This document shows, piece after piece, positions 40,457 to 59,159 of a stretch of DNA of 64,000 nucleotides. Numbering within the stretch: position 1 is the stretch's first letter; the number at the start of each line of letters is the position of its first letter. The notes under the pieces are model-generated. The model saw nothing but the letters and a program-made list of their open reading frames with translations, made no database searches and had not been told where the DNA came from. The position numbers and the translations under genes are program-made. Source of the DNA: an uncultured Erysipelotrichaceae bacterium (lineage in GTDB: Bacteria > Bacillota_I > Bacilli_A > RFN20 > CAG-826); contig CADCNT010000010.1 of NCBI GenBank assembly GCA_902802905.1, forward strand, positions 2,393-66,392. The letters run 5' to 3'.

Positions 40457-40720
40457 ATGCCAACAATTATACCAATTAGAGACCTAAGAAATACCAGTGA
40501 GATTTCAGAAATGGCCCACAAAAAACAAGAACCTATTTTTATTACTAAAAACGGATATAGCGATTTAGTTTTAATGAGCACTGAATTATATGAGAAGATT
40601 GCTCTTACTAATCGTATAGATCAAGCTATTTTTGAATCTGAAGAAGAAGTCTTGAATGGTGCTAAGCCGATTTCTTTAAAAGAAGCAAGGAAACAGCTAG
40701 ATGGAAAATATTACAAATGA
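40457..40720 (+). CDS. Type II antitoxin, Phd/YefM family
   Basis: IIPIRDLRN...EPIFITKNG..DLVLMS.ELYE. Confidence 0.9.
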   Translation: MPTIIPIRDLRNTSEISEMAHKKQEPIFITKNGYSDLVLMSTELYEKIALTNRIDQAIFESEEEVLNGAKPISLKEARKQLDGKYYK

Positions 40721-41015
40721 ATATGAAATTTTAGTCAATCCTAGGGCATGTAGAGATATTGAAGACATTTATAAATATATATCTTCAGAAATATTGGAAC
40801 CAATAGTTGCCAAACAACAAACAGACCGCATTTGGGATGCAATTAGCCTGCTATCTACTTTTCCTTATTCCCATCAGGACAGGATTGTAGGAAGATATGC
40901 TGGGAAAGGCTATAAACAGCTTCTTATAGACAACTATATGGTTATCTATAGAATAACTGAAGATAAAAAAATTGTGACTGTTGTAACAGTTCAATACGCC
41001 GGCAGAAATATTTAA
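40701..41015 (+). CDS. Type II toxin, RelE/ParE family
   Basis: Overlaps the antitoxin; A.RDIEDIY.YI...L..FP...DNYMVIYRI.....V.V..V.Y. Confidence 0.88.
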   Translation: MENITNEYEILVNPRACRDIEDIYKYISSEILEPIVAKQQTDRIWDAISLLSTFPYSHQDRIVGRYAGKGYKQLLIDNYMVIYRITEDKKIVTVVTVQYAGRNI

Positions 41016-41203
41016 TTGCTATTAAATAGACATAGTAGCTAATAAATAACACTTGGGTGGATATGAAAATCACTCTCGCTAGTAAGCGGAGTTCTTTATG
41101 TATATGTTCAATAGAAGAACGAGTATTTATAAACAAGTGGTGGAACATATATTCATACTATAATCCGATGTTGCATAAATAGATGCTTGTTTGTTTATAG
41201 TTA

Positions 41204-41232
41204 TTGAAAATAAAGCTCCAATTGATTATGAT
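41204..41232 (+). promoter_or_regulatory. Sigma-A-like promoter of the tRNA
   Basis: TTGAAA-17 bp-TATGAT, ending 10 nt before the tRNA. Confidence 0.55.
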
Positions 41233-41242
41233 AATTAGCACT

Positions 41243-41318
41243 GGGTCTGTAGCTCACCTGGGAGAGCGTATCGTTCGCAACGATAAGGTAGGGAGTTCGA
41301 GCCTCCTCAGATCCACCA
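41243..41318 (+). tRNA. tRNA-Ala(CGC)
   Basis: 76 nt; acceptor GGGTCTG/CAGATCC with the G3:U70 Ala determinant; anticodon arm TATCG-TTCGCAA-CGATA; T-loop TTCGAGC; encoded CCA. Confidence 0.96.
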
Positions 41319-41331
41319 AAATAGTGAAAAA

Positions 41332-41414
41332 TGTTGTTGTCTAAAGTCACTTATTCGAAATTGGACAAAACGACTTATCCAGCATAGATTAGGCCTCTTA
41401 TGAGGTCTTTTCTT
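41332..41414 (+). repeat. ~84-bp intergenic element copy 1 (ends in terminator AGGCCTC-loop-GAGGTCT-TTT)
   Basis: Aligns without gaps, except in the terminator loop, to 43885-43968. Partial third copy at 44761-44805. Confidence 0.8.
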
Positions 41415-41433
41415 TGACCTTTATTATTTCTTG

Positions 41434-41465
41434 TGTGACACTTTTGTGACAACCACTGTGATAAT
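41434..41465 (+). promoter_or_regulatory. Regulon motif copy 1
   Basis: TGTGACA-CTTT-TGTGACA-accac-TGTGATAAT upstream of precursors 1-2. Confidence 0.8.
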
Positions 41466-41488
41466 ATAAAATCAACTAAGGAGATATT

Positions 41489-41782
41489 ATGCATATGAAA
41501 CAAGATTTATTAAAAGGTTTAACTAAAGAACAAATCGCAAAAGTTAAAGCATGCAAAAATCATGAAGAACTATTAGCGTTAGCAAAAGAAGAAGGCATTG
41601 AATTAACTGATGAACAACTATCCGCTATTAGTGGTGGTGGTGTCTGTAGTGTTGCTTCAGATGTTGGAGATTTTTTTAATCCATTTGATTGTCCAGAGTG
41701 TGGAAGCAACAAAGTTGAGGCAGTGAAAGGCAAAGGTAATCTATTCCAATGCCAAAGCTGCGGATTTAAATGGAGAGAGTAA
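41489..41782 (+). CDS. Nif11-like double-glycine leader precursor 1 with zinc-ribbon-like core
   Basis: Leader ...ELLALAKEEGIELTDEQLSAISGG; core GVC...CPEC-X16-CQSCGFKW. True start may be ATG 41495. Confidence 0.88.
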   Translation: MHMKQDLLKGLTKEQIAKVKACKNHEELLALAKEEGIELTDEQLSAISGGGVCSVASDVGDFFNPFDCPECGSNKVEAVKGKGNLFQCQSCGFKWRE

Positions 41783-41789
41783 AGATTCC

Positions 41790-42083
41790 ATGAAACAAGA
41801 TTTATTAAAAGGCTTAACTAAAGAACAAATCGCAAAAGTTAAAGCATGTAAAAACCACGATGAGCTTTTAAGCCTTGCTAAAGAAGAAGGCATTGAGCTC
41901 ACTGATGAACAATTACAAGTCGTTAGTGGTGGCGGCGCCTGCAGTGCTATTTCCAGTATTGGCGATAAAATCAATCCATGGGATTGCCCAAGATGCGGTG
42001 CGAACAAACCTGTAAAAGATGGCAGGACCTACACTTGCGAGAAGTGCGGCTACACATGGACAGACAATAGTTCACCAATTTAA
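41790..42083 (+). CDS. Nif11-like leader precursor 2
   Basis: Same leader (...QVVSGG); core GAC...CPRC-X13-CEKCGYTW. Confidence 0.88.
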   Translation: MKQDLLKGLTKEQIAKVKACKNHDELLSLAKEEGIELTDEQLQVVSGGGACSAISSIGDKINPWDCPRCGANKPVKDGRTYTCEKCGYTWTDNSSPI

Positions 42084-42108
42084 TAAAAACGTTAATTATT
42101 CTATCGTG

Positions 42109-42132
42109 ACCGAGTGAAATATCTCGGTTTTT
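42109..42132 (+). terminator. Intrinsic terminator
   Basis: ACCGAG-TGAAATAT-CTCGGT-TTTT. Confidence 0.7.
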
Positions 42133-42255
42133 CTTTTGCTTGCTCGTATTCGAGCCACGTGGCGCGTTTCTTTTATTAATAAAAACTAATTACTATCGGG
42201 TAGAATTAACGTGTTAATAGAGAAAAAAATATGAAAGCAAGATTAATATTTCTTG

Positions 42256-42287
42256 TGTGACACTTTTGTGGCGATTACCGTGATAAC
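42256..42287 (+). promoter_or_regulatory. Regulon motif copy 2
   Basis: TGTGACA-CTTT-TGTGGCG-attac-CGTGATAAC upstream of precursor 3. Confidence 0.75.
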
Positions 42288-42315
42288 ATATTATTATTCA
42301 AGGAGAATATAGCTT

Positions 42316-42603
42316 ATGAAGCAAGATTTATTAAAAGGTTTAACTGACGAACAAATCGCTAAAGTTCAAGCATGTAAAGATCGCGAAGAATTGTTATTAT
42401 TAGCAAAATCTGAAGGGATTGAACTTACCGATGAACAACTAGAAGCTGTTAATGGTGGAGCGTGTTCTAACACAGATAATTGTCCGCCATGTCCATCATG
42501 TCGAAGCACTAATGTTAAATTAAGACAATCTGGCAAGATTTTAAAAAAATACAAGTGTAATGATTGTGGTAAAGAGTTCCAAACAGAATATACAAGCAAA
42601 TAA
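42316..42603 (+). CDS. Nif11-like leader precursor 3
   Basis: Leader ...EAVNGG; core AC...CPPCPSC-X18-CNDCGKEF; RBS AAGGAG. Confidence 0.88.
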   Translation: MKQDLLKGLTDEQIAKVQACKDREELLLLAKSEGIELTDEQLEAVNGGACSNTDNCPPCPSCRSTNVKLRQSGKILKKYKCNDCGKEFQTEYTSK

Positions 42604-42763
42604 ACTAACTGCCTTCAAACTTAATCAATATAAAATAAAAGCCGGGTGTAAAAGTGAACTAGTCGAACAAAAACAAACATATATCGTTAAAGATTTATTG
42701 GAAGCGGAAGGTCTTGTTTAGGAGTTATTTATTTTGCTACAATAAACTCAAAGGGGAATTAAA

Positions 42764-43198
42764 ATGACGTTTAACGAAATTTACAGCACGTACTTAAATT
42801 ATTCACAAGATGAAAAAATCGCACTTGCAAAAGGCGCGACAGTTGAATTGCTTAAGTTTTTCCAAAAAGTTGGCTTGACGGAAGACAATCCTGAATTAGT
42901 TCAATCTTTCTTTCATACATTGCTTTCACTCTTCATTGGTGCAGATGGTAAAATCACCTCTAATGAAGCTGCAATTTATAATGAGATTTTTGGAACAAAC
43001 TATCGTCCATCCGAAATGGTAGGATTTGTTGGTGAAGTTATTAAAGAAACAGATAATTTTATTGACATAGATTCATTTATCGACCAAATGAATCAAGAAC
43101 AAAAAACATTATGCTGCTATATTATTTTAGCGATTATAACAGCTGATGGAAACGTTACCGCTGAAGAATCTGCCGCATTTGAAAGAATCTTAGCTTAA
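42764..43198 (+). CDS. TerB-like protein
   Basis: Two ADG.(I/V)T..E motifs (GADGKITSNE, TADGNVTAEE) in a helical protein. Confidence 0.65.
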   Translation: MTFNEIYSTYLNYSQDEKIALAKGATVELLKFFQKVGLTEDNPELVQSFFHTLLSLFIGADGKITSNEAAIYNEIFGTNYRPSEMVGFVGEVIKETDNFIDIDSFIDQMNQEQKTLCCYIILAIITADGNVTAEESAAFERILA

Positions 43199-43215
43199 TT
43201 TCTAAAGGTAAACAT

Positions 43216-43244
43216 AAGACACTCCTAAAAAATGGGGTGTTTTT
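43216..43244 (+). terminator. Intrinsic terminator
   Basis: AGACACTCC...GGGGTGTTT-TT. Confidence 0.65.
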
Positions 43245-43297
43245 ATTATAGAACATTATCAAATCAATTATGTTAAAATATCAATAAGGGAATAATA

Positions 43298-43876
43298 ATG
43301 GCGAGTGATTTAGGAAAAAGCTATAAGCTTAAAAAGATAAAAATTAATTATCCAAATGGTGATGTTTATGAAGGAATGGGCGCTGCCTATTATAATCCGC
43401 CATATGAACCTCATGGAATAGGTCGATATTATCAAAAGTCTAGTGGAATTACTTTTGAAGCAGACTGGGAGTGGAGAAAGGGACCAGACTTTAAATCGAT
43501 AAGAATAATAAATAAGCCATTAGGAAAATCGTTTGTTATCTTACAGGTTTACGCTGGTGAGATTTATAGCGATTTAGTTCATCTTGATATAATCGAGGCA
43601 AAAGAAGGAGAATACGCCTTTAAAGATTTGCCATCTATCATCTTAGAACCACATAGTTGGTCAAAACATCAATTTGTTATAAAGAAAGTAAGCGACGAAG
43701 AATTGATTTTTGATTTTACCGGTCCGAAAGTGGATCACGGTAATTTTATCAACAAGCGCGCACCTAAGAATGAGCCAAAAGAATATGAATCAACTGTATC
43801 ATCACATATCATTTGGGATCACGATGATGAATATGATGTGAGCCAAACCGCAAAAATCGAACTATTATATTTTTAA
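43298..43876 (+). CDS. Hypothetical protein with an N-terminal MORN-like repeat
   Basis: YPNGDVYEG...PHGIGRYY...GITFEADW. Confidence 0.65.
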   Translation: MASDLGKSYKLKKIKINYPNGDVYEGMGAAYYNPPYEPHGIGRYYQKSSGITFEADWEWRKGPDFKSIRIINKPLGKSFVILQVYAGEIYSDLVHLDIIEAKEGEYAFKDLPSIILEPHSWSKHQFVIKKVSDEELIFDFTGPKVDHGNFINKRAPKNEPKEYESTVSSHIIWDHDDEYDVSQTAKIELLYF

Positions 43877-43884
43877 AAGGTAGC

Positions 43885-43968
43885 TGTCGTCGTCCAAATC
43901 CACTTATCTGGTTTTGCACAAAACGACTTATTCAACATAGATGAGGCCTCCGCGTGAGGTCTTTTCTT
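43885..43968 (+). repeat. ~84-bp intergenic element copy 2
   Basis: Homologous to 41332-41414 (CACTTAT...ACAAAACGACTTAT...CATAGAT.AGGCCTC...GAGGTCTTTTCTT). Confidence 0.8.
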
Positions 43969-43999
43969 GTGGCACATTTGTGACAAATGGTGTGATAAT
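43968..43999 (+). promoter_or_regulatory. Regulon motif copy 3
   Basis: TGTGGCA-CATT-TGTGACA-aatgg-TGTGATAAT upstream of precursor 4. Confidence 0.8.
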
Positions 44000-44026
44000 A
44001 TAAAAATCAACAAGGAGACTTGCGAT

Positions 44027-44323
44027 ATGAAACAAGAATTATTAAAAGGATTAACTGAAGAACAAATTGCTAAAGTCAAGAAATGCAAGAACTACGACGA
44101 ACTATTAGAACTTGCCAAAGCTGAAGGTGTTGAATTAACTGACGAACAATTAAAAATTGTTAGTGGCGGTGGCAAAGACTATTGTCAATCTACACCAAGC
44201 GACCCGTGTATGTATTGCGGATCAAAAGACGTCAAATATAAAAGAGAAACAACTGGTGTCTTATTTGATTACCAATATTGTGGCACATGTAGAACATGCG
44301 GAAGATCCTTTTATATTTTTTAA
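44027..44323 (+). CDS. Nif11-like leader precursor 4
   Basis: Start ATG 44027 after AAGGAG; core GKDYC...CMYC-X23-CRTCGRSF. Confidence 0.88.
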   Translation: MKQELLKGLTEEQIAKVKKCKNYDELLELAKAEGVELTDEQLKIVSGGGKDYCQSTPSDPCMYCGSKDVKYKRETTGVLFDYQYCGTCRTCGRSFYIF

Positions 44324-44368
44324 TTATAAAAGCGTAATAACCAAATACCCCTTTATATTATTAAATTT

Positions 44369-44392
44369 GAAGCCGTTTAAAAGCGGCTTTTT
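44369..44392 (+). terminator. Intrinsic terminator
   Basis: GAAGCCG-TTTAAAAG-CGGCTTT-TT. Confidence 0.7.
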
Positions 44393-44393
44393 G

Positions 44394-44425
44394 TGTGGCA
44401 CATTTGTGACAGATACTGTGATAGC
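44394..44425 (+). promoter_or_regulatory. Regulon motif copy 4
   Basis: TGTGGCA-CATT-TGTGACA-gatac-TGTGATAGC upstream of precursor 5. Confidence 0.8.
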
Positions 44426-44453
44426 ATAGAATTAACAAAGGAGAACTTTGAAA

Positions 44454-44723
44454 ATGAAAGAAGAATTATTAAAAGGTTTAAGCGAAGAACAAATCGCGAA
44501 AGTTAAAAAATGTAAAAGCCAAGATGAATTATTAAAACTCGCTAAAGAGGAAGGCATTGAATTAACTAGTGAGCAAATCGAAGCCGTCAGTGGTGGCGGA
44601 TGTTTCTCAAGCATGAAATGCCCAAATTGTGGTTCAAAAGATTTTAGAAAATTGCCAAATTACCAAATAAGTGGATGTTCAACTTATAAATGTAATGCAT
44701 GCGGTCACGAGTGGTCTTTATAA
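44454..44723 (+). CDS. Nif11-like leader precursor 5
   Basis: Leader ...EAVSGG; core GC...CPNC-X20-CNACGHEW. Confidence 0.88.
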   Translation: MKEELLKGLSEEQIAKVKKCKSQDELLKLAKEEGIELTSEQIEAVSGGGCFSSMKCPNCGSKDFRKLPNYQISGCSTYKCNACGHEWSL

Positions 44724-44781
44724 AATAAACACGATAAGTGAATTAATAAAATACTATCAAAAGATTTATACCGTATAGATT

Positions 44782-44805
44782 AGGCCTTTTCGGAGGCCTT
44801 TTTTT
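44782..44805 (+). terminator. Intrinsic terminator (related to the 84-bp element)
   Basis: AGGCCTT-TTCG-GAGGCCT followed by a T-run. Confidence 0.75.
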
Positions 44806-44836
44806 GTGGCACTTTTGTGACAATACCTATGATAGT
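44805..44836 (+). promoter_or_regulatory. Regulon motif copy 5
   Basis: TGTGGCA-CTTT-TGTGACA-atacc-TATGATAGT upstream of precursors 6-7. Confidence 0.8.
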
Positions 44837-44864
44837 ATATGAATATCAAAGGAGAATTTTGAAA

Positions 44865-45149
44865 ATGAAAGAAGAATTACTTAAAGGTTTAACTGAAGAA
44901 CAAATCGCTAAAGTAAAAGCTTGCAAAAACCAAGATGAATTGTTAGCGTTAGCCAAACAAGAAGGCGTTGAACTCACAGATGAACAATTAGCCGCTGTTT
45001 CCGGTGGTATCTGCACAAGTACACCTACCTTTATCTGCCCAAAATGTGGTTCTGCCAAAATTAAAACTAGATATAATGAAAACTCTATTGCTGAATGGTG
45101 GAATAATACCTGTCAAGATTGTGGATTTGTCTGGATTGTTAATAAATAA
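44865..45149 (+). CDS. Nif11-like leader precursor 6
   Basis: Leader ...AAVSGG; core IC...CPKC-X21-CQDCGFVW. Confidence 0.88.
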   Translation: MKEELLKGLTEEQIAKVKACKNQDELLALAKQEGVELTDEQLAAVSGGICTSTPTFICPKCGSAKIKTRYNENSIAEWWNNTCQDCGFVWIVNK

Positions 45150-45167
45150 TAAAGGAGAATTTTGAAA

Positions 45168-45455
45168 ATGAAAAAAGATTTATTCAAAGGTTTAAGCGAA
45201 GAACAAATCGCTAAAGTAAAAGCTTGTAAAAATAGTGAAGAACTCTTGGCTTTAGCTAAAGCAGAGGGCATTGAACTTACAGATGAACAACTAGCCGCGA
45301 TTAGTGGTGGTGGCGCTTGTAGTGTTGTTTCAGATCTCGGAGATAAAATCAATCCTTTTGATTGCCCATTCTGTGGATATAACGGTAAATTTGATAAAGA
45401 CGGTAATGAAATTACCTGTCCAAAATGTGGAAAAACTTGGAGAGATAACGGTTAA
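45168..45455 (+). CDS. Nif11-like leader precursor 7
   Basis: Leader ...AAISGG; core GAC...CPFC-X14-CPKCGKTW. Confidence 0.88.
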   Translation: MKKDLFKGLSEEQIAKVKACKNSEELLALAKAEGIELTDEQLAAISGGGACSVVSDLGDKINPFDCPFCGYNGKFDKDGNEITCPKCGKTWRDNG

Positions 45456-45515
45456 TATTTAAAGCTTTTTGATATTCGAAAATAAGTTCTCGAATAAAAA
45501 AAGAATAAGCCTCTA

Positions 45516-45545
45516 AAAAGCCGAGTGCAAAATCTCGGTTTTTTT
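45516..45545 (+). terminator. Intrinsic terminator
   Basis: AAAAGCCGAG-TGCAAAAT-CTCGGTTTTTTT, similar to 42109-42132. Confidence 0.75.
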
Positions 45546-45578
45546 GTGGCACTTTTGTGACATAGGTATTGATACAAT
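45545..45578 (+). promoter_or_regulatory. Regulon motif copy 6
   Basis: TGTGGCA-CTTT-TGTGACA-taggt-ATTGATACAAT upstream of the lipase gene. Confidence 0.75.
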
Positions 45579-45620
45579 AATAAGCGAAGGGAAAATAATT
45601 ATTATTTTTAAGAGAGTTAT

Positions 45621-47624
45621 ATGAAAAATTTTGCATTAATGTTCTTCCTCTCATGTGGGCTTGTCACTGGTGTTGCTAGTGGTGGGGCTCCTACTAGAGC
45701 AAATGAAACTTATGAAGTGAATAAGTATTCTTTTTTCTACGCTCCTGATAGTAGATATGAAACTGCACCTCACTTCACCGCCGATATTTATTTTTCCCAA
45801 TCCTATTTTGAACACTCATCCTATGAATATGACACACATTTAGCTACTGCTTCCCTTTGCTTAGCGATGTCCACTTATCCTGACTATACTTCAGCATATG
45901 ATGATGAATGGTATCAAAGCCAACCTAAGTTTATTAAGAATACATTGGAGACTATTGGCTTTAATTCATTTACTACTAATCAAGATTACGTAGAAACTGC
46001 GAGAATGGATTCTATTGGTTTGGCCATTGCTAAAAAAGAATTTAATAATTATACAGTTATTGCTGTGGCACCTAGATCTGGTGGCTATTATAGAGAATGG
46101 GCAAACAATATGCATTTAGGCGATGGCACTAAGTCAGACTATATGCATGAAGGCTGGTATAACGCAGCTAATAAGTTAATTGATTTTGTTATTAATTACG
46201 TTAAAGATAACCAAGTCACTGGACGTGTGAAATTATGGATGACAGGTTATTCTAGAGGCGGAGCAACCGCTAATTTGGCTGCCGGTTTAATTGATGCCCG
46301 TTTAGATAAGGGTGAAAACTTATTAGGTAATCAAGCCAGTTTAACTAGAGAAGATGTCTATGCTTATACATTTGAAGCGCCTCAAGGAGCGAATGTAAAT
46401 TCTAAAACCATTAAACTCCCTAAAGATGCCATTTATGGCAATATCTTTAATGTAATTCATCCTAATGATATCGTTCCTAAAGTTGCGATGGCGGAGTATG
46501 GCTTTACTCGCTTTGGAATTGATAAATTCATTACCACTAAATTTTATGATCCTAGCAATTACGACAGTAATCGCCGTGTCTTTAATAAGTTATTTGATAT
46601 CGTCAATCAAAATGATGAAGTCAAATACAGCGGTGATAATTTTGGAATGTATGGTCTTAAAATTGAAGACTTCTTAAGAATTATTACCGTGATTCCTGCG
46701 ATTGTTGGTTTAATTACTGGTGACCTTGGTCAAGCAAAAGACAAAACTAAGGCCAATTATGACGCCAATATTGCATCAACCTTATTCATTGAAGAAATTA
46801 CCTCAGAACTAGGTTCTAGAGATAACTATGTTAAGAAATATCAACCCTCTTTAGAGAATTTGATGCTTATTATGAAGAACGAACAGTACACTGATATACC
46901 TTCTACTCCAGGTTTAGTGTTAAGAATGTTTATCCTTACTGTTTTATCTAGTTCTCTTTTAGGTAATTTTAATTCGATACAAAAGGCTATTAAGAGTAGC
47001 GTAGGTTCTTATGCGTCTGCAATCGTGGACCTCCTTGATGTTTTAGTTGATCCAATGGTGGATGCATATTGGGAAAGACCAAATGAACTTATCTCTATTG
47101 CAGTGCATATTGGTGATATCTTCCAAAACCATTATGCGGATATCATTCTCGCCCATGTGCAAGCACAAGATAGTTACTATATTGATGACTATAACAAGAA
47201 TAATGAAGAAAAGATTAGTGTTGTTTCTTTTAGAAATAACGCTGATTTTGGAAGAATGAAATTCTTCGGCTTTAATGATTTAGGCTTAAGATTAGAGAGC
47301 AAGAACGGCACTCGTGTTGTTAACGTTGAAGGACATCTTGTTGGCAAGAGCGATATTGAGCAATGCAATAAAGAATATGCGGTTGGCTATTATAGCTATA
47401 TTACCGAAGAGAAGATGGAACTATTTATGCCTATCAATAAGAAATATAACATCTCGATGAAGTCTTATTCTAAAAAGCCACGTCACCGCGTTGAATATTG
47501 GGCTTACTATCAATTCTTTGCTTTAGATAATCGCGGAGTAAAAAGAGCGCAACTAGACCATAAAAAAGACACAGCCTACTTTAACTCTGATCGCTTTAAA
47601 CGCGACGTTAATGTCAAACTATAA
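45621..47624 (+). CDS. Secreted alpha/beta hydrolase, lipase class 3-like
   Basis: Signal peptide; HEGW, WMTGYSRGG (GxSxG), YTFEAP, NVIHPNDIVPKV. Confidence 0.82.
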   Translation: MKNFALMFFLSCGLVTGVASGGAPTRANETYEVNKYSFFYAPDSRYETAPHFTADIYFSQSYFEHSSYEYDTHLATASLCLAMSTYPDYTSAYDDEWYQSQPKFIKNTLETIGFNSFTTNQDYVETARMDSIGLAIAKKEFNNYTVIAVAPRSGGYYREWANNMHLGDGTKSDYMHEGWYNAANKLIDFVINYVKDNQVTGRVKLWMTGYSRGGATANLAAGLIDARLDKGENLLGNQASLTREDVYAYTFEAPQGANVNSKTIKLPKDAIYGNIFNVIHPNDIVPKVAMAEYGFTRFGIDKFITTKFYDPSNYDSNRRVFNKLFDIVNQNDEVKYSGDNFGMYGLKIEDFLRIITVIPAIVGLITGDLGQAKDKTKANYDANIASTLFIEEITSELGSRDNYVKKYQPSLENLMLIMKNEQYTDIPSTPGLVLRMFILTVLSSSLLGNFNSIQKAIKSSVGSYASAIVDLLDVLVDPMVDAYWERPNELISIAVHIGDIFQNHYADIILAHVQAQDSYYIDDYNKNNEEKISVVSFRNNADFGRMKFFGFNDLGLRLESKNGTRVVNVEGHLVGKSDIEQCNKEYAVGYYSYITEEKMELFMPINKKYNISMKSYSKKPRHRVEYWAYYQFFALDNRGVKRAQLDHKKDTAYFNSDRFKRDVNVKL

Positions 47625-47637
47625 GGAGGAAAAGAAG

Positions 47638-48723
47638 ATGAAAAGAAATGCTTTATTATTAATTCCTCTAGTGGTGGGACTTGTCTCTTGTAGTAACTCT
47701 TCTAGTGTTCCAAATCGAGAGACTGTGAATAGATTAAAAGAATTGTTAAGTAAACAAGACTTGTCTGAATTCTACACTAAAACAGTAAATGGTATTTATT
47801 CACAAGAATATGATGTTTTAGACATTGAAAAAGACGGAGAAGAAAGAACAACAAGTTATTTCAGCTATCTTGGAGTTGGTCTATTCGGTTTCTATTATGA
47901 TCTTAGCAAGAATCAATATGACTCTATTGTTGATGAAAATGGTGATATTGATACCTTTGATGCGATTTCTACTGGGCAAGGATCATATGGCATCATGCAA
48001 GTATCCAGAACCATGTATTTTAATAGAGAAGGTAGTTCCGAGGCCAAAATTAATAACCTCGATATTTCACAAAATGTTAATCTTAAAACTGTCGAACAAG
48101 ATCTCTGGGTCGAAAATAGTCTACTTGTTAGCGATGATGGTGTCTTTCAGTATGAAACTCGTCAAGAATTCTCCGCTATTATAAATAGAGAATTATTATT
48201 TAACTCTGTTTCTACTAGAACATTCCGTGATATTTTTTCAAAAGTAGATTTATTTGACACTCCTGGGAATGTTGAACATTTAGATAAGTTATATTTTTCC
48301 ATCTGTCGAGATTTAGCAAACAAAAGCGATAAGCAAATTAGTAATTTCATAAAAGCAAATCAAGTTTCTATTCAAGAAGAACAAAATAATGTTGAAGTAA
48401 GTTTTGTTTACACTAACGAAGATCTTGAAGAAGAGGAAATGGATTATATTTTCCCTGGTGCGATTAAAGGAACACTTTATTTTGATAAAGAAACTTATCA
48501 ATTCTTAAACTTCGAATACGAAATGGTATATCAAGTCGAAACCTATGATAGGGAAACTGGTAGCATTAAGGTCATTAATACAAAATTCACTTGTTCTGGA
48601 GAATCCACTCGTGAAATACCACATGATACAGTAGAACCAATTAACCCAACAATCTATGATGATGTTGCTCAGTTTTTAGAAGATGTAAATGAAAATGTCG
48701 TGCCACCAAGTATTGTCATATAG
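47638..48723 (+). CDS. Acidic lipoprotein of unknown function
   Basis: RBS AAGGAGG, lipobox LVSC; starts 13 nt after the lipase stop. Confidence 0.78.
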   Translation: MKRNALLLIPLVVGLVSCSNSSSVPNRETVNRLKELLSKQDLSEFYTKTVNGIYSQEYDVLDIEKDGEERTTSYFSYLGVGLFGFYYDLSKNQYDSIVDENGDIDTFDAISTGQGSYGIMQVSRTMYFNREGSSEAKINNLDISQNVNLKTVEQDLWVENSLLVSDDGVFQYETRQEFSAIINRELLFNSVSTRTFRDIFSKVDLFDTPGNVEHLDKLYFSICRDLANKSDKQISNFIKANQVSIQEEQNNVEVSFVYTNEDLEEEEMDYIFPGAIKGTLYFDKETYQFLNFEYEMVYQVETYDRETGSIKVINTKFTCSGESTREIPHDTVEPINPTIYDDVAQFLEDVNENVVPPSIVI

Positions 48724-51457: not shown

Positions 51458-51491
51458 TGTGGCACATTTGTGACAATATATGTGATACCAT
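51458..51491 (+). promoter_or_regulatory. Regulon motif copy 8, promoter of the maturation/export operon
   Basis: TGTGGCA-CATT-TGTGACA-atata-TGTGATACCAT, ending 9 nt before ATG 51501. Confidence 0.8.
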
Positions 51492-51500
51492 ATTTTCAAC

Positions 51501-52673
51501 ATGCTAGAAAAAGAAATTCTTACATTGATGTATCAAGATTTTGAAGTTCTTACTTTTGAAGTGGACTACGAAAAAGAAAGAATCAGAATTGTTGAAAAGC
51601 TAGAACATTTCGATAAAGCACCTTATGGCGTAACCGAAGATAGTTTTAAACTGATGAGATTTTTTAACGCTCGCACTATATCCGCACAAAGAAGTGACTA
51701 TGAAGCAATTCTAAAAGCTATGAAATGCAAGAGTGGTTTTGAACTATCTTTTAAAGGACATGGGCTTTCTTTAGCCAATCATTATTGGTTTAAAAGAGAA
51801 GGCGAAAATTTAAAATATGGTGACATTAACTTCTTTACTAATAAGTGGGATGATACATTCGGTAGAGCGGTATTAAGTGGAGACTACGAAGCTTTAAAGA
51901 CATGTGACTTAAATGTTCCTGATATAGTTATCTCTGGTTGGGGCGTTAAGGGGTGGATTTATGATAACGGACCTAAATTATATAAATTAGGAATCCATAA
52001 TGAACATCCAGAAGAAGCAATATGTGAAGTTTTAGCCGCTAAACTCGCTAGTAGATTATTAAGCCCAGAAGAAGTGCTCCAATATGAGCTAAAGACGATT
52101 AACGGGAAGTATGCTTCTGTGTCTAAGCCATTAATCACTGTGGATGAAGAATTAGTACCTCTATCAATTCTTTTACCTCCTGCTTGGTATTTAATGTTTA
52201 AAGAGAAAAACGCAAATAGAGATCTGAGTAAAGAATTCTTTAAGAAAGTTGAAAACTATGACATGCCTGAGTTATATCAATTCTTTGTCAAAGTTTCTTG
52301 CTTACGTACGTTATGCTTTGTCTCTGATTTGCATTTCGATAACCTCTCTGCAATTAGAAATATGAAAACAGGAAAGCTGAAAATGGCGCCTCTATATGAT
52401 TTAGGTGGAGCGTTTGGTTCTTCTGAATCAGGTAAGAGTATGATTACAAACGCCAATAAAGGTACTTTATTAATAATCTATTTTATGTTTGGTGATTTAT
52501 CTCCAGATTGGGATTATTCTTGGTACAAGCCAGAAAAACTAGTTGGAATTGAAGATGAGATTAGAGAATATTTATCAAAGAGTGATTTCTATAACCCTGA
52601 AATTATCGACTGTGTAATTGAGATTTATCATCAACAAAAGAAAACTTTAGATGAAATAGCGAAAAAGATTTAA
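51501..52673 (+). CDS. HipA/CtkA-like Ser/Thr kinase
   Basis: GLSLANHYW, GWGVKGW...LYKLG...EEAICEVLA, catalytic SDLHFDN and APLYDLG. Confidence 0.78.
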   Translation: MLEKEILTLMYQDFEVLTFEVDYEKERIRIVEKLEHFDKAPYGVTEDSFKLMRFFNARTISAQRSDYEAILKAMKCKSGFELSFKGHGLSLANHYWFKREGENLKYGDINFFTNKWDDTFGRAVLSGDYEALKTCDLNVPDIVISGWGVKGWIYDNGPKLYKLGIHNEHPEEAICEVLAAKLASRLLSPEEVLQYELKTINGKYASVSKPLITVDEELVPLSILLPPAWYLMFKEKNANRDLSKEFFKKVENYDMPELYQFFVKVSCLRTLCFVSDLHFDNLSAIRNMKTGKLKMAPLYDLGGAFGSSESGKSMITNANKGTLLIIYFMFGDLSPDWDYSWYKPEKLVGIEDEIREYLSKSDFYNPEIIDCVIEIYHQQKKTLDEIAKKI

Positions 52674-52686
52674 AAGGAGAAAGAGT

Positions 52687-54081
52687 ATGTTTTATCGTTT
52701 AAAAGATAATGTTGCATTAAGAAAGTGGAGATATGTCGACCGTGCGATTTATAGAAAAGGCAGTGAAAACGCAACCGGCATTTCTCAAAAAGAATTTGAT
52801 ATACTTCTTCTTTGTGATGGAAAGCATGATATCGAACCATCTCCATATCTTGCTAATTTATTATCTCAACGGCTTATTGAAGAATGTAAAGAAGGTGATG
52901 AGGCTAATCCCTGGTCACTTTTACATGAATATGATAACTATTACTTCCCAAAGATGAATTTAATGATTACTGGGAAATGTAATCTTAACTGTTTGCACTG
53001 TTTCAATGCGAAAGATAACGCTCCGCTTAATACTGAATTAACTTATGAAGAAGTTTTAAATATTTTGGATCAAGCACGTGATATTGGAGTGCATGCTTTT
53101 ACCATTACAGGTGGGGAGCCGTTAGTTCATCGTCGTTTCTTAGATATTATTAGAGCGATTTATGAAAGGGACATGTTTGTCTTTGAATTGAACACTAATG
53201 GCTTACTTATCACTCAAAAAATGCTTGATGTCTTTAAAGAGTTAAAATGTTACCCATTAATTAAAATTTCTTTTGATGGAGTTGGCTATCATAACTGGAT
53301 GCGACAAAATCCAAGAGCGGAAGATTTAACTGTTAAAGCGATTCAATTATGTATTAAGAATGGCTTTAGAGTGAAAGCACAAGTGCAAGTTAATCGTAAA
53401 AATGTCGACGTGATGTTAGATACCGCCAAACTTCTAAATGAAATGGGTGTTGATGAGATGAGAATTATTAGAACTACTGAAGCACCTAGATGGGAAAAGA
53501 ATTCTCCAGATTCTTCTTTGCCAATTGAAGAGTACTATCAAAGAATGTTGGAGTTCGCTAAAACATATACTCAAAGCGATATGGAAATGACTATTGATAT
53601 CTGGCAACTTATCAGACTATACCCAAGACACAAATCCTATGATTTAGTTCCTATTGCCTGTTCTAAAGATGAATTTAATATCCGTATTCCAATGTGCAAA
53701 GGTAATCGTGGTATGATTGCGGTTTCTTCTAGCGGAGAAGCTGTACCTTGTTTACAGATGTCTGGTTGGTTTATGGAACGCGGAATTAGCTTAGGTAATG
53801 TTCTTAAAACTCCTTTAAAAGAATTAGTAAAAGATAGCCCATATCTTAATTTAGCAATGGCACCTTTGCTTAAGCAAATTTTGGAAAATGATAAATGTGG
53901 TAACTGTAAATACTATAAAGTTTGTGCCGGTGGTTGCCCTGCCTTAGGACTGCTATATTCTAAAAACGGAGACTACTATCATGAAGATATAACGAAATGT
54001 ATTTTCTTTGAAAATGGTTGGTATGATAGAATAGTTCAAGAATTAAACGAATGGCATCTAATTAAAGCATTGGATCTTTAA
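52687..54081 (+). CDS. Radical SAM/SPASM-domain enzyme with an N-terminal RRE-like extension (putative peptide maturase)
   Basis: CNLNCLHC, TGGEP, NTNG, ISFDG; SPASM MCKG...GEAVPC...LGNV...CGNC...CAGGCPA...C; ~85-aa N-terminal extension with ILLLCDG. Confidence 0.92.
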   Translation: MFYRLKDNVALRKWRYVDRAIYRKGSENATGISQKEFDILLLCDGKHDIEPSPYLANLLSQRLIEECKEGDEANPWSLLHEYDNYYFPKMNLMITGKCNLNCLHCFNAKDNAPLNTELTYEEVLNILDQARDIGVHAFTITGGEPLVHRRFLDIIRAIYERDMFVFELNTNGLLITQKMLDVFKELKCYPLIKISFDGVGYHNWMRQNPRAEDLTVKAIQLCIKNGFRVKAQVQVNRKNVDVMLDTAKLLNEMGVDEMRIIRTTEAPRWEKNSPDSSLPIEEYYQRMLEFAKTYTQSDMEMTIDIWQLIRLYPRHKSYDLVPIACSKDEFNIRIPMCKGNRGMIAVSSSGEAVPCLQMSGWFMERGISLGNVLKTPLKELVKDSPYLNLAMAPLLKQILENDKCGNCKYYKVCAGGCPALGLLYSKNGDYYHEDITKCIFFENGWYDRIVQELNEWHLIKALDL

Positions 54082-54093
54082 TGTTAAATTTTT

Positions 54094-54477
54094 ATGAAAA
54101 AGCAAGACGTTCATATTTCTAGCCCAGAAGAATTAAACAAGCACTTACAACATTCTTCACCGGTAACTTGGATAATTTTGTTTGCGACAATCGCAATCCT
54201 TATCGCGTTTTTTGCTTGGTCATTTATCTATAAATTAAAGGTGAAAATTACTGGTACCGCTACTGTTAATAGTGGTGTTGCTACTTTAGTTGTTGATCAA
54301 CAATCTTCTTCGCAATTAAAAGAAGGGCAGACTGTTCATATTTCTAATGCTGAAGGACTCTTATCATATAACGACCAAGACGAACCAATCGTCAGCAATT
54401 TGACGTTAGATGATGGAGAATATTCTTTCTATATCGTCGTAAAAGAAATTAGACCAATTGATTTTGTAATCAAATAA
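54094..54477 (+). CDS. Short NHLP/NHLM-type secretion accessory protein (HlyD-related)
   Basis: ISSPEELN...SP.TW + transmembrane helix at the N-terminus and RPIDFV at the C-terminus match NHLM secretion proteins; no central coiled coil. Confidence 0.75.
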   Translation: MKKQDVHISSPEELNKHLQHSSPVTWIILFATIAILIAFFAWSFIYKLKVKITGTATVNSGVATLVVDQQSSSQLKEGQTVHISNAEGLLSYNDQDEPIVSNLTLDDGEYSFYIVVKEIRPIDFVIK

Positions 54478-54481
54478 AAAG

Positions 54482-56656
54482 ATGAAAAAGAAGAGAATAA
54501 AGAAGCAAGTGACTCATGGAGTAGCCAATACTCCGATTATTATGCAGTTAGAAGCTCTTGAATGTGGAGCTGCTTCTTTAGCAATGGTCATGGCCTATTA
54601 CGGCAAATGGGTACCACTTGAACAAGTCCGTGTTGATTGTGGCGTTTCTCGTAACGGTAGTAATGCGAAAAACATCTTAAGAGCAGCAGAAAAATATGGT
54701 TTCAAAACTAAAGGCTTTGCTTATAACGTTAAGAGACTTAGAGAAAGAGGAAAGTTCCCTGCTATTATCCACTGGGGTGGTGGACACTTTGTTGTTTTAA
54801 ATGGTTTTAGAGGAAACAAAGCAATTCTTAATGACCCTGCAAAAGGTTTAGTGAAAGTTGATTTAAAAACTTTCGATAAAATCTTTACTGGGATTTATCT
54901 TGAAATTACTCCAGATGAGAATTTTGAACCAGGCGGCAAAAGGAAATCTGTTTTCAAATTCGCTAAAAAGAGACTTAGAGGCGCTTTTGCCTTAGTGGCC
55001 TTCTTCTCAATTACGACGATTGTCTTTTATTTATTTACGATTATTAGTCCAGCAGCAAATCAGGTTTTTGTGGACTACCTGTTAGGAGGGAATAATCCGT
55101 CTTGGTTATTGCCGTTTATTTTTATATTTGCCGGTGTTGGCTTGTTGCAAGTCATAGTGACAATAGTTCAATCCTTATATCAGTATAAGATTAGAGGCAA
55201 ATTAGATTTAATTGGTTCATCCACATACATGTGGAGAATCTTACGTTTACCAATCGACTTCTTTTCTCAACGAATGGTTGGAGACTTACAAGCACGTCAA
55301 AGCGAAAACGCGACTATTGCAGAAACATTGGTGAATGTTTTTGCTCCGCTTTTATTTAACACGATTATGATCGTTGTTTATTTAGTAGTCATGTTAAATA
55401 AGAGCTGGATCCTTACCCTTGTTGGTGTTTTTACCATCTTAGTTAACGCATTCGTTTCACGTTATATTTCTAGAGTAAGAGTTAACATCTCTAGAGTTCA
55501 AGCACGTGATAACTCGAGATTAGCTGGTATGACCTCTAAAGGTATTGAAATGATTGAAACCATTAAATCAAATGGCGCAGAAACCTCTTATTTCTCTAGT
55601 TGGCAAGAAGCCGCTGATAGTGTCTATCAACAAAACGTGAAGATGGCAAAAACTAATTCTTTCCTTGGCTTAGTTCCTACCTTCGTTGCCACATTAGCTA
55701 ACTACGCAGTTTTAATTCTTGGTGTCTACTATACAGTTATTGGCCAATTCACTGTTGGTGCTATTTTAGCGTTCCAAGGTTTATTAAGTGCCTTCATGGC
55801 TCCTGCTAACACACTTATCAGTAGTGGCCAAACTTTACAAGAAATGCGTACTTCTATGGAAAGAGTGGATGACGTTTTAGAATATCCTCTTGATCCAAAT
55901 GTTACTCGTGAAATTGAAATGGAACATGTTTCCAAAATTAAAGGTAACTTAATTCTTAAAGATGTAACCTTTGGTTACTCTAGATTAGATAAACCAGTTT
56001 TAACTAACTTCAACTTAGAAATTAAACAAGGTCAAAAAGTGGCGATTGTTGGTACAACCGGTAGTGGTAAGTCCACAATCTCTAAATTAATTTCTGGTTT
56101 ATATTCACCATGGTCAGGTGAAATCATCTTTGATGGTAAAAAGATTGAAGAAATTGACCATGAAATCTTTACTTCATCGATCGCGGTTGTTGACCAAGAC
56201 ATCACCTTATTTGAAGACACAGTCATGAATAACATCAAGATGTGGGATCGTTCCATTGAAGATTACGAAGCCATTATGGCGTGTAATGATGCGCAAATTC
56301 ATAATTCTATTATTTCTAGACAAGGCGGATATAATGCACCTGTGTTAGAAGGTGGTAAGAACTTCTCTGGTGGCGAAAAACAAAGATTAGAGATTGCTCG
56401 TTCCTTAGCGATGGATCCAAGCATTATCATCCTTGATGAAGCCACTAGTGCGCTTGATGCGAAAACTGAATTTGAAGTGGTAAAAGCAATTAAAGCTAGA
56501 GGTATTACCACAATTGTTATCGCTCATAGATTATCAACGATTAGAGACGCTGATTTAATCGTGGTTTTACAAAAAGGAATTATCGTCGAACAAGGAACTC
56601 ATGACGAGTTAATGGCGTTAAAAGGTTCCTATTACGATTTAGTTACAAACGAATAG
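54482..56656 (+). CDS. NHLP-type peptidase-containing ABC transporter (C39 peptidase/permease/ATPase)
   Basis: QLEALECGAASLAM (catalytic Cys), CGVSRNG, IIHW...HFVV, NDPA; GTTGSGKST, FSGGE, ILDEATS. Confidence 0.93.
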   Translation: MKKKRIKKQVTHGVANTPIIMQLEALECGAASLAMVMAYYGKWVPLEQVRVDCGVSRNGSNAKNILRAAEKYGFKTKGFAYNVKRLRERGKFPAIIHWGGGHFVVLNGFRGNKAILNDPAKGLVKVDLKTFDKIFTGIYLEITPDENFEPGGKRKSVFKFAKKRLRGAFALVAFFSITTIVFYLFTIISPAANQVFVDYLLGGNNPSWLLPFIFIFAGVGLLQVIVTIVQSLYQYKIRGKLDLIGSSTYMWRILRLPIDFFSQRMVGDLQARQSENATIAETLVNVFAPLLFNTIMIVVYLVVMLNKSWILTLVGVFTILVNAFVSRYISRVRVNISRVQARDNSRLAGMTSKGIEMIETIKSNGAETSYFSSWQEAADSVYQQNVKMAKTNSFLGLVPTFVATLANYAVLILGVYYTVIGQFTVGAILAFQGLLSAFMAPANTLISSGQTLQEMRTSMERVDDVLEYPLDPNVTREIEMEHVSKIKGNLILKDVTFGYSRLDKPVLTNFNLEIKQGQKVAIVGTTGSGKSTISKLISGLYSPWSGEIIFDGKKIEEIDHEIFTSSIAVVDQDITLFEDTVMNNIKMWDRSIEDYEAIMACNDAQIHNSIISRQGGYNAPVLEGGKNFSGGEKQRLEIARSLAMDPSIIILDEATSALDAKTEFEVVKAIKARGITTIVIAHRLSTIRDADLIVVLQKGIIVEQGTHDELMALKGSYYDLVTNE

Positions 56657-58853: not shown

Positions 58854-58865
58854 TTGGAGGCTTTT

Positions 58866-59159
58866 ATGGAACATAAACTAGAAAACGGAGTATTAACATT
58901 ATTTTTCAAAGGAGATCTTAACTCCAGCAATTCTGAACAAATAGAAGAAGAGATTGAAAAAATCTTAGGCGCAAATAAATTCCAAAGTATAGTGCTTGAT
59001 TTTGCAGAATTACGTTATATTTCATCTGCTGGATTAAGAATCATTCTTAAGATTAAAAAAGAACATGATGACACCAAAGTCGTTAAGGTCAATAAAGATG
59101 TTTATGATATCTTTGAAATGGTTGGCTTTAGCAGTGTCATCACCATTGAACGAGCTTAA
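58866..59159 (+). CDS. STAS-domain protein (anti-sigma factor antagonist-like)
   Basis: GDLNS, VLDFAELRYISSAGLR, VYDIFEMVGF; RBS GGAGG before ATG 58866. Confidence 0.88.
   Translation: MEHKLENGVLTLFFKGDLNSSNSEQIEEEIEKILGANKFQSIVLDFAELRYISSAGLRIILKIKKEHDDTKVVKVNKDVYDIFEMVGFSSVITIERA

Follow-up and report, generated by a model that had tools for sequence, protein, structure and literature searches.

The DNA analysed here, referred to below as the window, is a stretch of 64,000 nucleotides from contig CADCNT010000010.1 of an uncultured Erysipelotrichaceae bacterium (assembly GCA_902802905.1). Positions are those of the whole stretch, G000 denotes the source genome (1.54 Mb in 25 contigs, 95.6% complete), and other handles beginning with G or L denote other genomes and loci. 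Directly 3' of a tRNA-Ala gene with anticodon CGC (identified by ARAGORN; 41243–41318, + strand) lies an array of seven short genes on the same strand, each encoding a precursor that consists of a 48-residue leader and a small cysteine-rich core with two CxxC pairs. As translated from their open reading frames (ORFs), these are precursor 1 (41495–41782; core of 47 residues, spacer of 16 between the pairs), precursor 2 (41790–42083; core of 49, spacer 13), precursor 3 (42316–42603; core of 47 with six cysteines, spacer 18), precursor 4 (44027–44323; core of 50, six cysteines, spacer 23), precursor 5 (44454–44723; core of 41, six cysteines, spacer 20), precursor 6 (44865–45149; core of 46, spacer 21, the core that was also modelled separately) and precursor 7 (45168–45455; core of 47, spacer 14). 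An AAGGAG ribosome-binding site is located 9–11 nucleotides 5' of the ATG codon in all seven genes. They fall into five units (1+2, 3, 4, 5 and 6+7), each preceded by a copy of a 45-nucleotide repeat, and hairpins followed by T-runs, judged by eye to be terminators, are found 3' of units 1+2, 4, 5 and 6+7.

An earlier reading of the sequence alone had described the cores as a fixed CxxC-X-CxxCGxx[W/F] scaffold attached to nearly identical leaders. The pattern is indeed present in all seven cores, with exactly the set of spacers that had been claimed, and pairwise identity within the array averages 0.78 for the leader versus 0.25 for the core. The CPxCG form given for the first knuckle does not hold throughout, being replaced by CPSCR in copy 3 and by CMYCG in copy 4. 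Seven further paralogs, on contigs C1, C6, C8 and C12, bring the number of precursors in the genome to 14; those outside the array lie dispersed, with unrelated neighbours (GGDEF, IS200/IS605, AbiEii-like), and in the paralog on C1 the core is just 15 residues long, with a single cysteine and no ribbon. Since CxxC-x(8-30)-CxxC occurs in 39 of the 9761 stop-to-stop frames of 40–130 residues in the genome and in 13 of the 14 leader-bearing genes, a chance origin of the pattern is excluded. The leader ends in SGG or NGG in all seven array genes, with G47 and G48 invariant, and the Gly-Gly is retained in 14/14 genomic copies. Cys20 of the leader (for example, codon 41552–41554) is likewise invariant in an 84-row alignment (84/84); in a few short-core leaders of other genomes it is substituted. 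An additional feature, absent from the earlier description, is a fifth cysteine at core position 1–5, that is, one to five residues past the Gly-Gly, in all 14 genomic copies.

Fold and conservation of the cores

The structure of precursor 1 at full length was predicted with AlphaFold2 from 84 homologs. The model comprises a leader of three helices, a disordered segment (residues 46–62) that contains both the Gly-Gly and the fifth cysteine, and a three-stranded C-terminal domain with predicted local distance difference test (pLDDT) values of 72–77. For the core of precursor 6 alone, modelled with 99 diverse homologs, the mean pLDDT is 90.3 and the predicted TM-score (pTM) 0.65, with strands at residues 18–24, 29–35 and 41–45. 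In a VIA-align comparison against 48,161 chains, the first places went to the ribbon of NrdR (Z 5.2, root-mean-square deviation (rmsd) 1.8 over 39 residues), ZPR1 (Z 4.8), the TFIIS-containing 7ui9_S (rmsd 6.4), RPB9 (Z 4.5, but a poor superposition with an rmsd of 7.2 over 45) and the TFIIS ribbon; another TFIIS match, 1y1v_S, has Z 3.8 and an rmsd of 1.7 over 39. In a Foldseek search of the PDB, the leading ranks are held by A12.2, Rpp21, TFIIS and NrdR, with query TM-scores (TMq) of 0.6–0.75, a ranking that serves as a description of the fold only, with no match reaching an E-value of 0.001. In both searches the list of structural matches consists almost purely of zinc ribbons. Hallmarks of the ribbon other than its cysteines are retained as well: G90 occurs in all of 84 sequences, and each of P67, G70 and W93 in at least 90% of them. 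At the level of prediction, the three strands modelled at a pLDDT of 90.3 and the near-uniform match list bear out the TFIIS/RPB9-type zinc-ribbon scaffold proposed in the sequence-only reading, and the assignment of the core as a three-stranded zinc ribbon with two CxxC knuckles is well supported by prediction. A metal ion would then be held by the four ribbon cysteines.

The relatives of these precursors are numerous. A profile search of 5.8 billion proteins yielded 3316 relatives at an E-value of 0.001 or less, and in a representative library the family counts 2380 clusters at 50% identity with the same E-value limit (316 at an E-value of 1e-10 or less). The ribbon motif is present in all of the best 120 of the 3316, and near-identical counterparts exist for every paralog of the window, although the best matches of a profile built from the window are biased towards close relatives. 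In databases the relatives appear under the names 'hypothetical protein', 'Nif11 family protein' and 'DUF1610 Zn-ribbon protein'. At an E-value of 1e-8 or less, a class-wide sample of 300 genomes included four with the precursor profile, all from one genus. In a closer sample the profile was present in three genera, which belong to one family, and a single genome of about 1.6 Mb had as many as 27 matches. Sequencing runs in which the array was detected are labelled bovine, goat or gut metagenome, with only one run holding more than half of the sampled words.

The loops between the knuckles had been described as hypervariable, and the comparison of orthologs contradicts this. Within the same core type, loop identity is 0.63–0.92 versus 0.75–0.82 for the leader. 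The comparison of leader and core by dN/dS, run here as the ratio of nonsynonymous to synonymous proportional differences (pN/pS), gave 0.143 for both the leader and the core among type-1 orthologs from six genomes, and 0.17 for the leader and 0.28 for the core among type-2 orthologs from three genomes. Purifying selection thus acts on both leader and core, the loops within a type being about as conserved as the leader (core pN/pS 0.14–0.28). The arrays of five other genomes repeat the same types, with 52 ribbon cores among 54 genes, one short core and one frameshifted copy. Across 91 pairs of paralogs within the genome, the leaders differ by a mean pS of 0.60 and a mean pN of 0.17, with synonymous divergence near saturation, and the paralogs are therefore old and have not been homogenised by gene conversion. 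The earlier statement that the loop sequences are unrelated accordingly stands for comparisons between the old paralog types; within a type, the loops are conserved across species. Ongoing diversification of the loops, considered as an explanation, is rejected on the pN/pS values and the identity counts. On these comparisons, the ribbons form a stable set of six or more surface variants that are old and conserved, and not a fast-evolving library. Decaying copies were also encountered: G006 carries a frameshifted copy of type 6 (L031, about 685), and a leader remnant in the source genome (G000:C8:16869–16928) runs for about 19 codons before a stop, with a promoter-like element on its 5' side and a gene for a secreted protein on its 3' side.

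The putative maturation and export operon and a shared upstream element

Downstream of the array the window contains an operon of six genes on the + strand that would provide for maturation and export. The first gene (51501–52673) encodes a HipA_C-like protein of 390 residues (Pfam HipA_C E-value 0.007, below the cut-off; Atlas features 0.98), for which peptide kinase, regulator and toxin are candidate roles. It is followed by the gene of a radical S-adenosylmethionine (SAM)/SPASM enzyme of 464 residues with CxxxCxxC at residues 98–105 (52687–54081; PF04055 74.2 bits, PF13186 27.7 bits), and by that of a 127-residue protein with a hydrophobic N-terminal stretch (54094–54477), which resembles only the N-terminus of the HlyD-like protein of NHLP systems (TIGR03794, 33 bits versus a cut-off of 156). 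The next two genes encode an ATP-binding cassette (ABC) exporter with an N-terminal C39 peptidase (54482–56656; PF03412 112 bits; TIGR03796 840.2 versus 853.3) and a second ABC permease/ATPase subunit (56670–58853; TIGR03797 653.7 versus 709.4), and the last gene a STAS anti-sigma-factor antagonist (58854–59159; TIGR00377 59.6 bits, above the cut-off of 53.45). The arrangement recurs in relatives: at ten loci compared, the gene for the 127-residue membrane protein is conserved in all ten and the HipA_C-like gene stands 5' of the radical SAM gene in eight.

The radical SAM enzyme is the only SPASM protein of the genome, which holds two C39 domains; no YcaO maturase was found in this 95.6% complete assembly. 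No NCBIfam model scores above its cut-off on the enzyme, the best being that of the heme synthase AhbD (109 versus 500), and the models of synthases that form sactionine or ranthionine thioethers also fall below theirs (StsB 80.8 versus 625, PapB 69.1 versus 340). Its nearest solved relatives, SuiB and SkfB, are matched weakly (E-values 3e-9 and 3e-8). A complex prediction of the enzyme with precursor 1 scored 0.06, against a mark of 0.32, and has no bearing either way.

The array and the operon share the 45-nucleotide repeat (repeat family D3), a promoter-like element of the form TGTGRCAC-W-TTTGTGRC...TGATA, in which three TGTGRYA-like boxes spaced by about one helical turn are combined with a TGTGATAAT-like box. 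The repeat search placed it, always on the + strand, 5' of precursors 1+2 (41428–41472), precursor 3 (42250–42294), precursor 4 (43962–44006), precursor 5 (44388–44432) and precursors 6+7 (44799–44843), and also 5' of a lipase_3 gene located at 45621–47624 (45539–45583); a pattern scan of the genome added the copy 5' of the maturation and export operon (51458–51500, + strand; G000:C10:53850). In its strict form the element has 16 sites in the genome, ten of them beside precursors, one before the radical SAM/ABC operon and one before the lipase gene, while its other targets include a STAS operon, the gene of a 681-residue secreted protein and an AbiEii-like gene. It also occurs on contigs C1, C4, C6, C8 and C12, and every site faces a downstream gene. 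The arrays of other genomes hold 26 sites, 22 of them before leader ORFs (21 recognised by script, one by eye), and the element is present at 12 of 45 loci of the enzyme.

A second repeat of about 80 nucleotides (D6/D4), without assigned strand, starts 14 nucleotides past the tRNA-Ala gene (41332–41414) and has a second copy 2.5 kb downstream (43885–43967, 79% identity) and a partial copy at 44759–44805; it may be an attachment-site-like duplication. We considered whether the 45-nucleotide element could be the end of such a mobile repeat and rejected this, as 13 of the 16 sites have no D4/D6 repeat, the element always faces a gene, and it has no inverted partner within 41000–46000; the array taken as a unit may nevertheless be mobile. 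Because the 80-nucleotide repeat is located upstream of only three of the 16 elements, leaving 13 sites without it, the 45-nucleotide element is read as regulatory, and it resembles the operator-promoter region of a single regulon. Contigs from the metatranscriptome run X20 cover the precursors in part, with zero depth at 42633–43591, a segment that two DNA runs cover at least partly; these contigs are not counted as evidence of transcription, as contigs cannot show it and a multi-copy leader attracts relatives.

Precursors are present in 17 of 61 related genomes, which are not independent, so that the counts do not amount to a statistic. An ortholog of the radical SAM enzyme occurs in 13 genomes, every one of them among the 17, and is absent from all 44 genomes that lack precursors. 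G020, which has precursors and no enzyme, is 69% complete. G009 (73% complete) retains a precursor and an exporter fragment that are both interrupted by a stop codon, as if the two had decayed together. The precursors and the operon are therefore linked in three ways, by their co-occurrence, by the shared upstream element and by the conserved gene order of the operon, and would belong to one regulon. Export of the cores is plausible, given a Gly-Gly leader, an ABC exporter with a C39 peptidase and the promoter-like element common to both.

These links bear directly on the suggestion that the array encodes cytoplasmic zinc-ribbon proteins with a Nif11-like N-terminus, either nucleic-acid binders or cargo of a mobile element at the tRNA-Ala gene, whose connection to the exporter is a coincidence. 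One database source does name relatives 'predicted RNA-binding Zn-ribbon protein (DUF1610)', and the position of the array directly 3' of tRNA-Ala with an attachment-site-like repeat would suit mobile cargo. Against this stand the invariant Gly-Gly at the end of the leader, the co-occurrence of the precursors with the C39 exporter and the enzyme, the upstream element common to precursors and operon, and the apparent joint decay of precursor and exporter in G009, and we consider a purely cytoplasmic role highly unlikely.

Several neighbouring features deserve mention in their own right. The lipase_3 protein (667 residues) and a 370-residue lipoprotein, encoded together at 45621–48723, carry the shared upstream element; both adjoin arrays in G010, and the lipase also does so in G006, so that the two proteins could be secreted cargo under common regulation. 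A Phd/YefM antitoxin and ParE toxin pair is located just 5' of the tRNA-Ala gene (40457–41015), and relatives of the pair flank arrays in G002, G006 and G010. On contig C12, adjoining a GGDEF gene and close to two precursor paralogs, a 937-residue protein (G000:C12:30104–32917, equivalent to L021:2105–4918, − strand) matches the RNA-dependent RNA polymerase family PF05183 (E-value 1.7e-7, 30.8 bits versus 23.8), which is unusual for a bacterium.

The N-terminal cysteine and the proposed product

The fifth cysteine is conserved well beyond the source genome. A cysteine no more than six residues from the Gly-Gly is present in 127 of 141 parsed representatives of the family, 99 of which have the ribbon motif; it is the first core cysteine in 53 of the 54 array genes of the five other genomes and is invariant across 99 diverse ribbon cores. 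Beside the ribbon cores, the representative library contains a second class of short cores with a single cysteine. Their precursors have the same leader, one cysteine directly past the Gly-Gly and a core of 12–25 residues that frequently ends in [K/R][K/R]-I/F-[D/E]-x. A gene of this short type stands immediately 5' of the radical SAM gene in seven of ten loci of relatives. A wider scan, limited to one genome per species, returned 141 stretches with relatives of the enzyme, of which 80 were kept; some of these loci may duplicate G genomes. Where the enzyme is at least 65% identical and enough upstream sequence is available, a single-cysteine precursor ends within 150 nucleotides 5' of the radical SAM gene at 22 of 45 loci. 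Cores with Gly-Gly, cysteine and CxxC..CxxC also occur near distant homologs of the enzyme, which are 41–52% identical to it and come from records under the titles Ruminococcus, Clostridia and Tissierellia, and at locus L107 a ribbon-type core gene lies immediately 5' of the distant enzyme gene.

The enzyme relatives themselves come from records whose titles name rumen and gut metagenome-assembled genomes. At 65–85% identity the titles are mostly Bacilli, Erysipelotrichaceae or Bacillales, several orthologs at 66–70% are titled Lachnospiraceae or Pseudobutyrivibrio, and those at about 50–55% are titled Ruminococcus, Oscillospiraceae, Eggerthellaceae or Treponema (the loci from the Lachnospiraceae to the Treponema titles are L059–L062, L064, L066, L068, L069, L071, L073–L084, L101 and L106). 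If the labels of the submitters are right, this suggests that the enzyme has spread horizontally among rumen taxa.

The only features common to everything that the enzyme family travels with are the leader, the first core cysteine and its Ser/Thr-rich surroundings, and the first cysteine is therefore the likeliest point of action of the enzyme, ahead of the four ribbon cysteines. We looked for a fixed acceptor residue after this cysteine and found a trend only, with Ser/Thr at 33–37% in positions +1 to +3 and Asp/Glu/Asn at 34% in position +4 (131 cores). The alternative raised in the sequence-only reading, in which the four CxxC cysteines are sactionine or ranthionine thioether donors and the product is a polycyclic peptide instead of a metalloprotein, has several points in its favour: the enzyme belongs to the radical SAM/SPASM group and its nearest solved relatives, weak as the E-values are, are the peptide crosslinkers SuiB and SkfB; cysteine-rich small proteins are known substrates in the CrpA/CrpC and QhpC/QhpD systems, according to the available part of PMC13692751; and precursor 6 matches TIGR04165, a model of methanogen cysteine-rich peptides, below its cut-off (22 versus 60 bits). 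This alternative is made unlikely by the one-cysteine precursor beside the radical SAM gene at 22 of 45 loci, since the usual neighbouring substrate of the enzyme has a single cysteine and has it at the position of the fifth cysteine. Thioether donors alone would also not require the glycine after each knuckle, the proline in the first and the aromatic residue three positions past the second, all of which are kept, and the ribbon fold is predicted with high confidence, while the spacing between the knuckles varies from 13 to 23 and the knuckles themselves remain fixed.

The same neighbourhoods raise a second question, namely whether the ribbons are substrates of the enzyme at all. They could borrow the leader for cleavage and export only and leave the cell unmodified, as metal-stabilised mini-proteins, with the enzyme acting on the short, pheromone-like single-cysteine peptide alone. 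The neighbour of the enzyme is of the short-core type at 22 of the 45 close loci and of the ribbon type at none, and about ten of the 141 representative cores have no N-terminal cysteine. The genomic setting of the short core in the source genome also fits an inducer that shares its exporter with the regulon: at G000:C1:22916–25342 (L025:4917–7343), the genes 3' of a copy of the promoter-like element are, in order, those of a STAS protein, of a 615-residue membrane protein in which a PP2C/SpoIIE phosphatase is fused to an anti-sigma-kinase-like ATPase, and of the short precursor (G000:C1:25151–25342). Against unmodified export, the N-terminal cysteine and its Ser/Thr-rich stretch are kept in the ribbon cores (13/13 in this genome, 52/52 elsewhere, invariant in 99 rows), a conservation that needs a reason; the leaders of the ribbon precursors are conserved as strictly as that of the short core; and distant homologs of the enzyme have ribbon-type cores nearby, directly upstream at L107. 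On balance, we find it rather doubtful that the ribbons leave the cell unmodified.

The reading that we favour is that the cores are exported as metal-bound ribbons and are probably modified only at the N-terminal cysteine, a site suggested by sequence conservation and gene neighbourhood; whether it is right as a whole we regard as evenly balanced. From the predicted fold and the gene content we infer metal binding, a modification and its site, export and a role outside the cell. The precursor would comprise a helical Nif11-like leader with a Gly-Gly end, a flexible Ser/Thr-rich segment with one cysteine, and a zinc ribbon of about 35 residues. The leader would bring the precursor to the radical SAM enzyme and bind to it; the enzyme would modify the precursor once, at or from the N-terminal cysteine and most likely by forming one thioether ring, in the same reaction that it would carry out on the short single-cysteine peptide encoded by its usual gene neighbour; and the C39 domain of the exporter would then cut past the Gly-Gly, with the metal-bound ribbon core leaving the cell. 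Once outside, the ribbons would most likely act as binding modules in antagonism or signalling. The rumen is strongly reducing, which makes disulfides less plausible there than extracellular sites in which four cysteines hold a metal. The short peptide may be the inducer of the regulon, since its gene follows the STAS and PP2C/anti-sigma-kinase operon with the same upstream element and a STAS gene also closes the exporter operon; the set beside the short-core gene could be a partner-switching sensor for this pheromone-like peptide. A still broader proposal is possible but more tentative: a new class of ribosomally made peptides with post-translational modifications (RiPPs) with a folded metalloprotein core, an N-terminal cysteine-derived ring as its 'handle', 10–27 different zinc-ribbon binding modules secreted as a conserved set by rumen bacteria with tiny genomes, and co-induction with the pheromone-like peptide through the STAS/PP2C proteins.

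A number of observations weigh against modified, exported ribbons. The structural matches are weak in absolute terms, with a best Z of 5.2 and Foldseek E-values never below 0.09, as is expected for 40 residues. All zinc-ribbon family models fall below their cut-offs on the precursors (for example, PF09723 at 23.0 versus 34.4 and PF01096 at 10–12 versus 21), and so do the Nif11 family models: TIGR03798, the Nif11-like leader, scores 12.7–22.5 bits versus 32.3 and is below in all seven, and PF07862 reaches at best 23.7 versus 23.8. The 15-residue double-glycine signature TIGR01847 does score above its cut-off on precursor 7 (17.7 versus 15.7), the other six being below it or unlisted. The approximately ten representative cores without a cysteine near the Gly-Gly indicate that the N-terminal cysteine is not obligatory, and at 23 of the 45 close loci the leader profile detects no leader gene within 150 nucleotides upstream of the radical SAM gene. 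G011 and G018 are well assembled and have precursors without a detectable radical SAM gene, with the exporter gene abutting a contig end at the site where the radical SAM gene would be expected. The N-terminus of the enzyme, a 90-residue extension, has no Pfam match at an E-value of 10 or less and no recognition-element family in the 98 residues searched. In the window itself, the operon is 6 kb from the array, behind the lipase, the lipoprotein, a membrane protein, an opposite-strand aldose epimerase and a PHP phosphatase, and no immunity gene was recognised among the neighbours of the array (a TerB-like gene, a 192-residue protein and the lipase). Finally, the cores are hydrophilic, with net charges of −1 to +5, and thus unlike typical membrane-active bacteriocins; binding modules are therefore to be expected, and not pore formers.

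Comparison with known systems

The cores of RiPPs are normally unstructured, and zinc ribbons normally bind nucleic acids or proteins inside the cell. If the reading of modified, exported ribbons is correct, a zinc-ribbon family that is secreted and guided by a leader would bring the two together, and it would provide a compact scaffold of natural origin for display, with numerous surface variants that are conserved, a radical SAM enzyme that acts on a minimal substrate with a single cysteine, and a candidate system of cell-cell interaction in uncultured rumen bacteria. The system is a large unnamed family of radical-SAM-associated precursors with Nif11-like Gly-Gly leaders and a putative NHLM-type exporter. 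No NCBIfam or Pfam model above its cut-off describes the precursors, apart from TIGR01847 on precursor 7, and none is specific to the enzyme. In the literature open without subscription, supplements set aside, we found no paper on zinc-ribbon cores with Nif11 or Gly-Gly leaders; the supplement of PMC10288494, for instance, may list the enzyme.

The closest relatives by family assignment are the systems with a Nif11/NHLP leader and the three-gene NHLM exporter (TIGR03798, TIGR03794, TIGR03796 and TIGR03797), whose models are those that the leader and the two ABC subunits match best. The present system differs from the curated ones in that its scores lie below the cut-offs (22.5 versus 32.3 for the leader, 840 versus 853 and 654 versus 709 for the first and second ABC subunits) and in that the HlyD-like partner has only 127 residues.

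Thioether crosslinks on protein-sized, cysteine-rich substrates are described for CrpA/CrpC and QhpC/QhpD in the available part of PMC13692751, and these ranthionine systems resemble ours in pairing a radical SAM/SPASM enzyme with a leader-bearing, cysteine-rich, protein-like substrate. In CrpA and QhpC several cysteines are crosslinked and that part of the source describes no zinc ribbon, whereas the minimal substrate here has one cysteine; by sequence, the enzyme does not group with the ranthionine synthases, the PapB model giving 69 bits versus 340. A single thioether ring formed by a radical SAM enzyme from a single cysteine has its precedents in KgrA, which has one cysteine (PMC10288494), and in the enteropeptins, which are single-cysteine sactipeptides (PMC12395415, PMC12973295); as far as the accessible parts of these sources go, the leader, the enzyme family and the accessory enzymes differ from those found here, and there is no appended folded domain.

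With respect to regulation and export, class II bacteriocin regulons whose inducer peptide has a Gly-Gly leader are similar: several Gly-Gly products and a short peptide depend on a single C39 ABC exporter, and a promoter element is repeated. They differ in that the present system has a STAS/PP2C/anti-sigma-kinase set in place of a histidine kinase and response regulator, has a radical SAM enzyme, and encodes products predicted to be zinc ribbons. In overall organisation the prochlorosins of marine picocyanobacteria (ProcA/ProcM) offer the nearest parallel; as described in the available part of PMC10783134 and from what is generally known of them, they too have scattered precursors, a Nif11-type Gly-Gly leader, dissimilar cores, one maturase and one C39 exporter, just as one SPASM enzyme would serve 14 precursors in this genome. 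Unlike the prochlorosins so described, which are unstructured Ser/Thr/Cys peptides matured by a lanthionine synthetase, the system described here has a radical SAM/SPASM maturase and predicted zinc-ribbon cores, its core types are conserved between species, and it is found in a member of the Bacilli from the rumen whose genome measures about 1.5 Mb.

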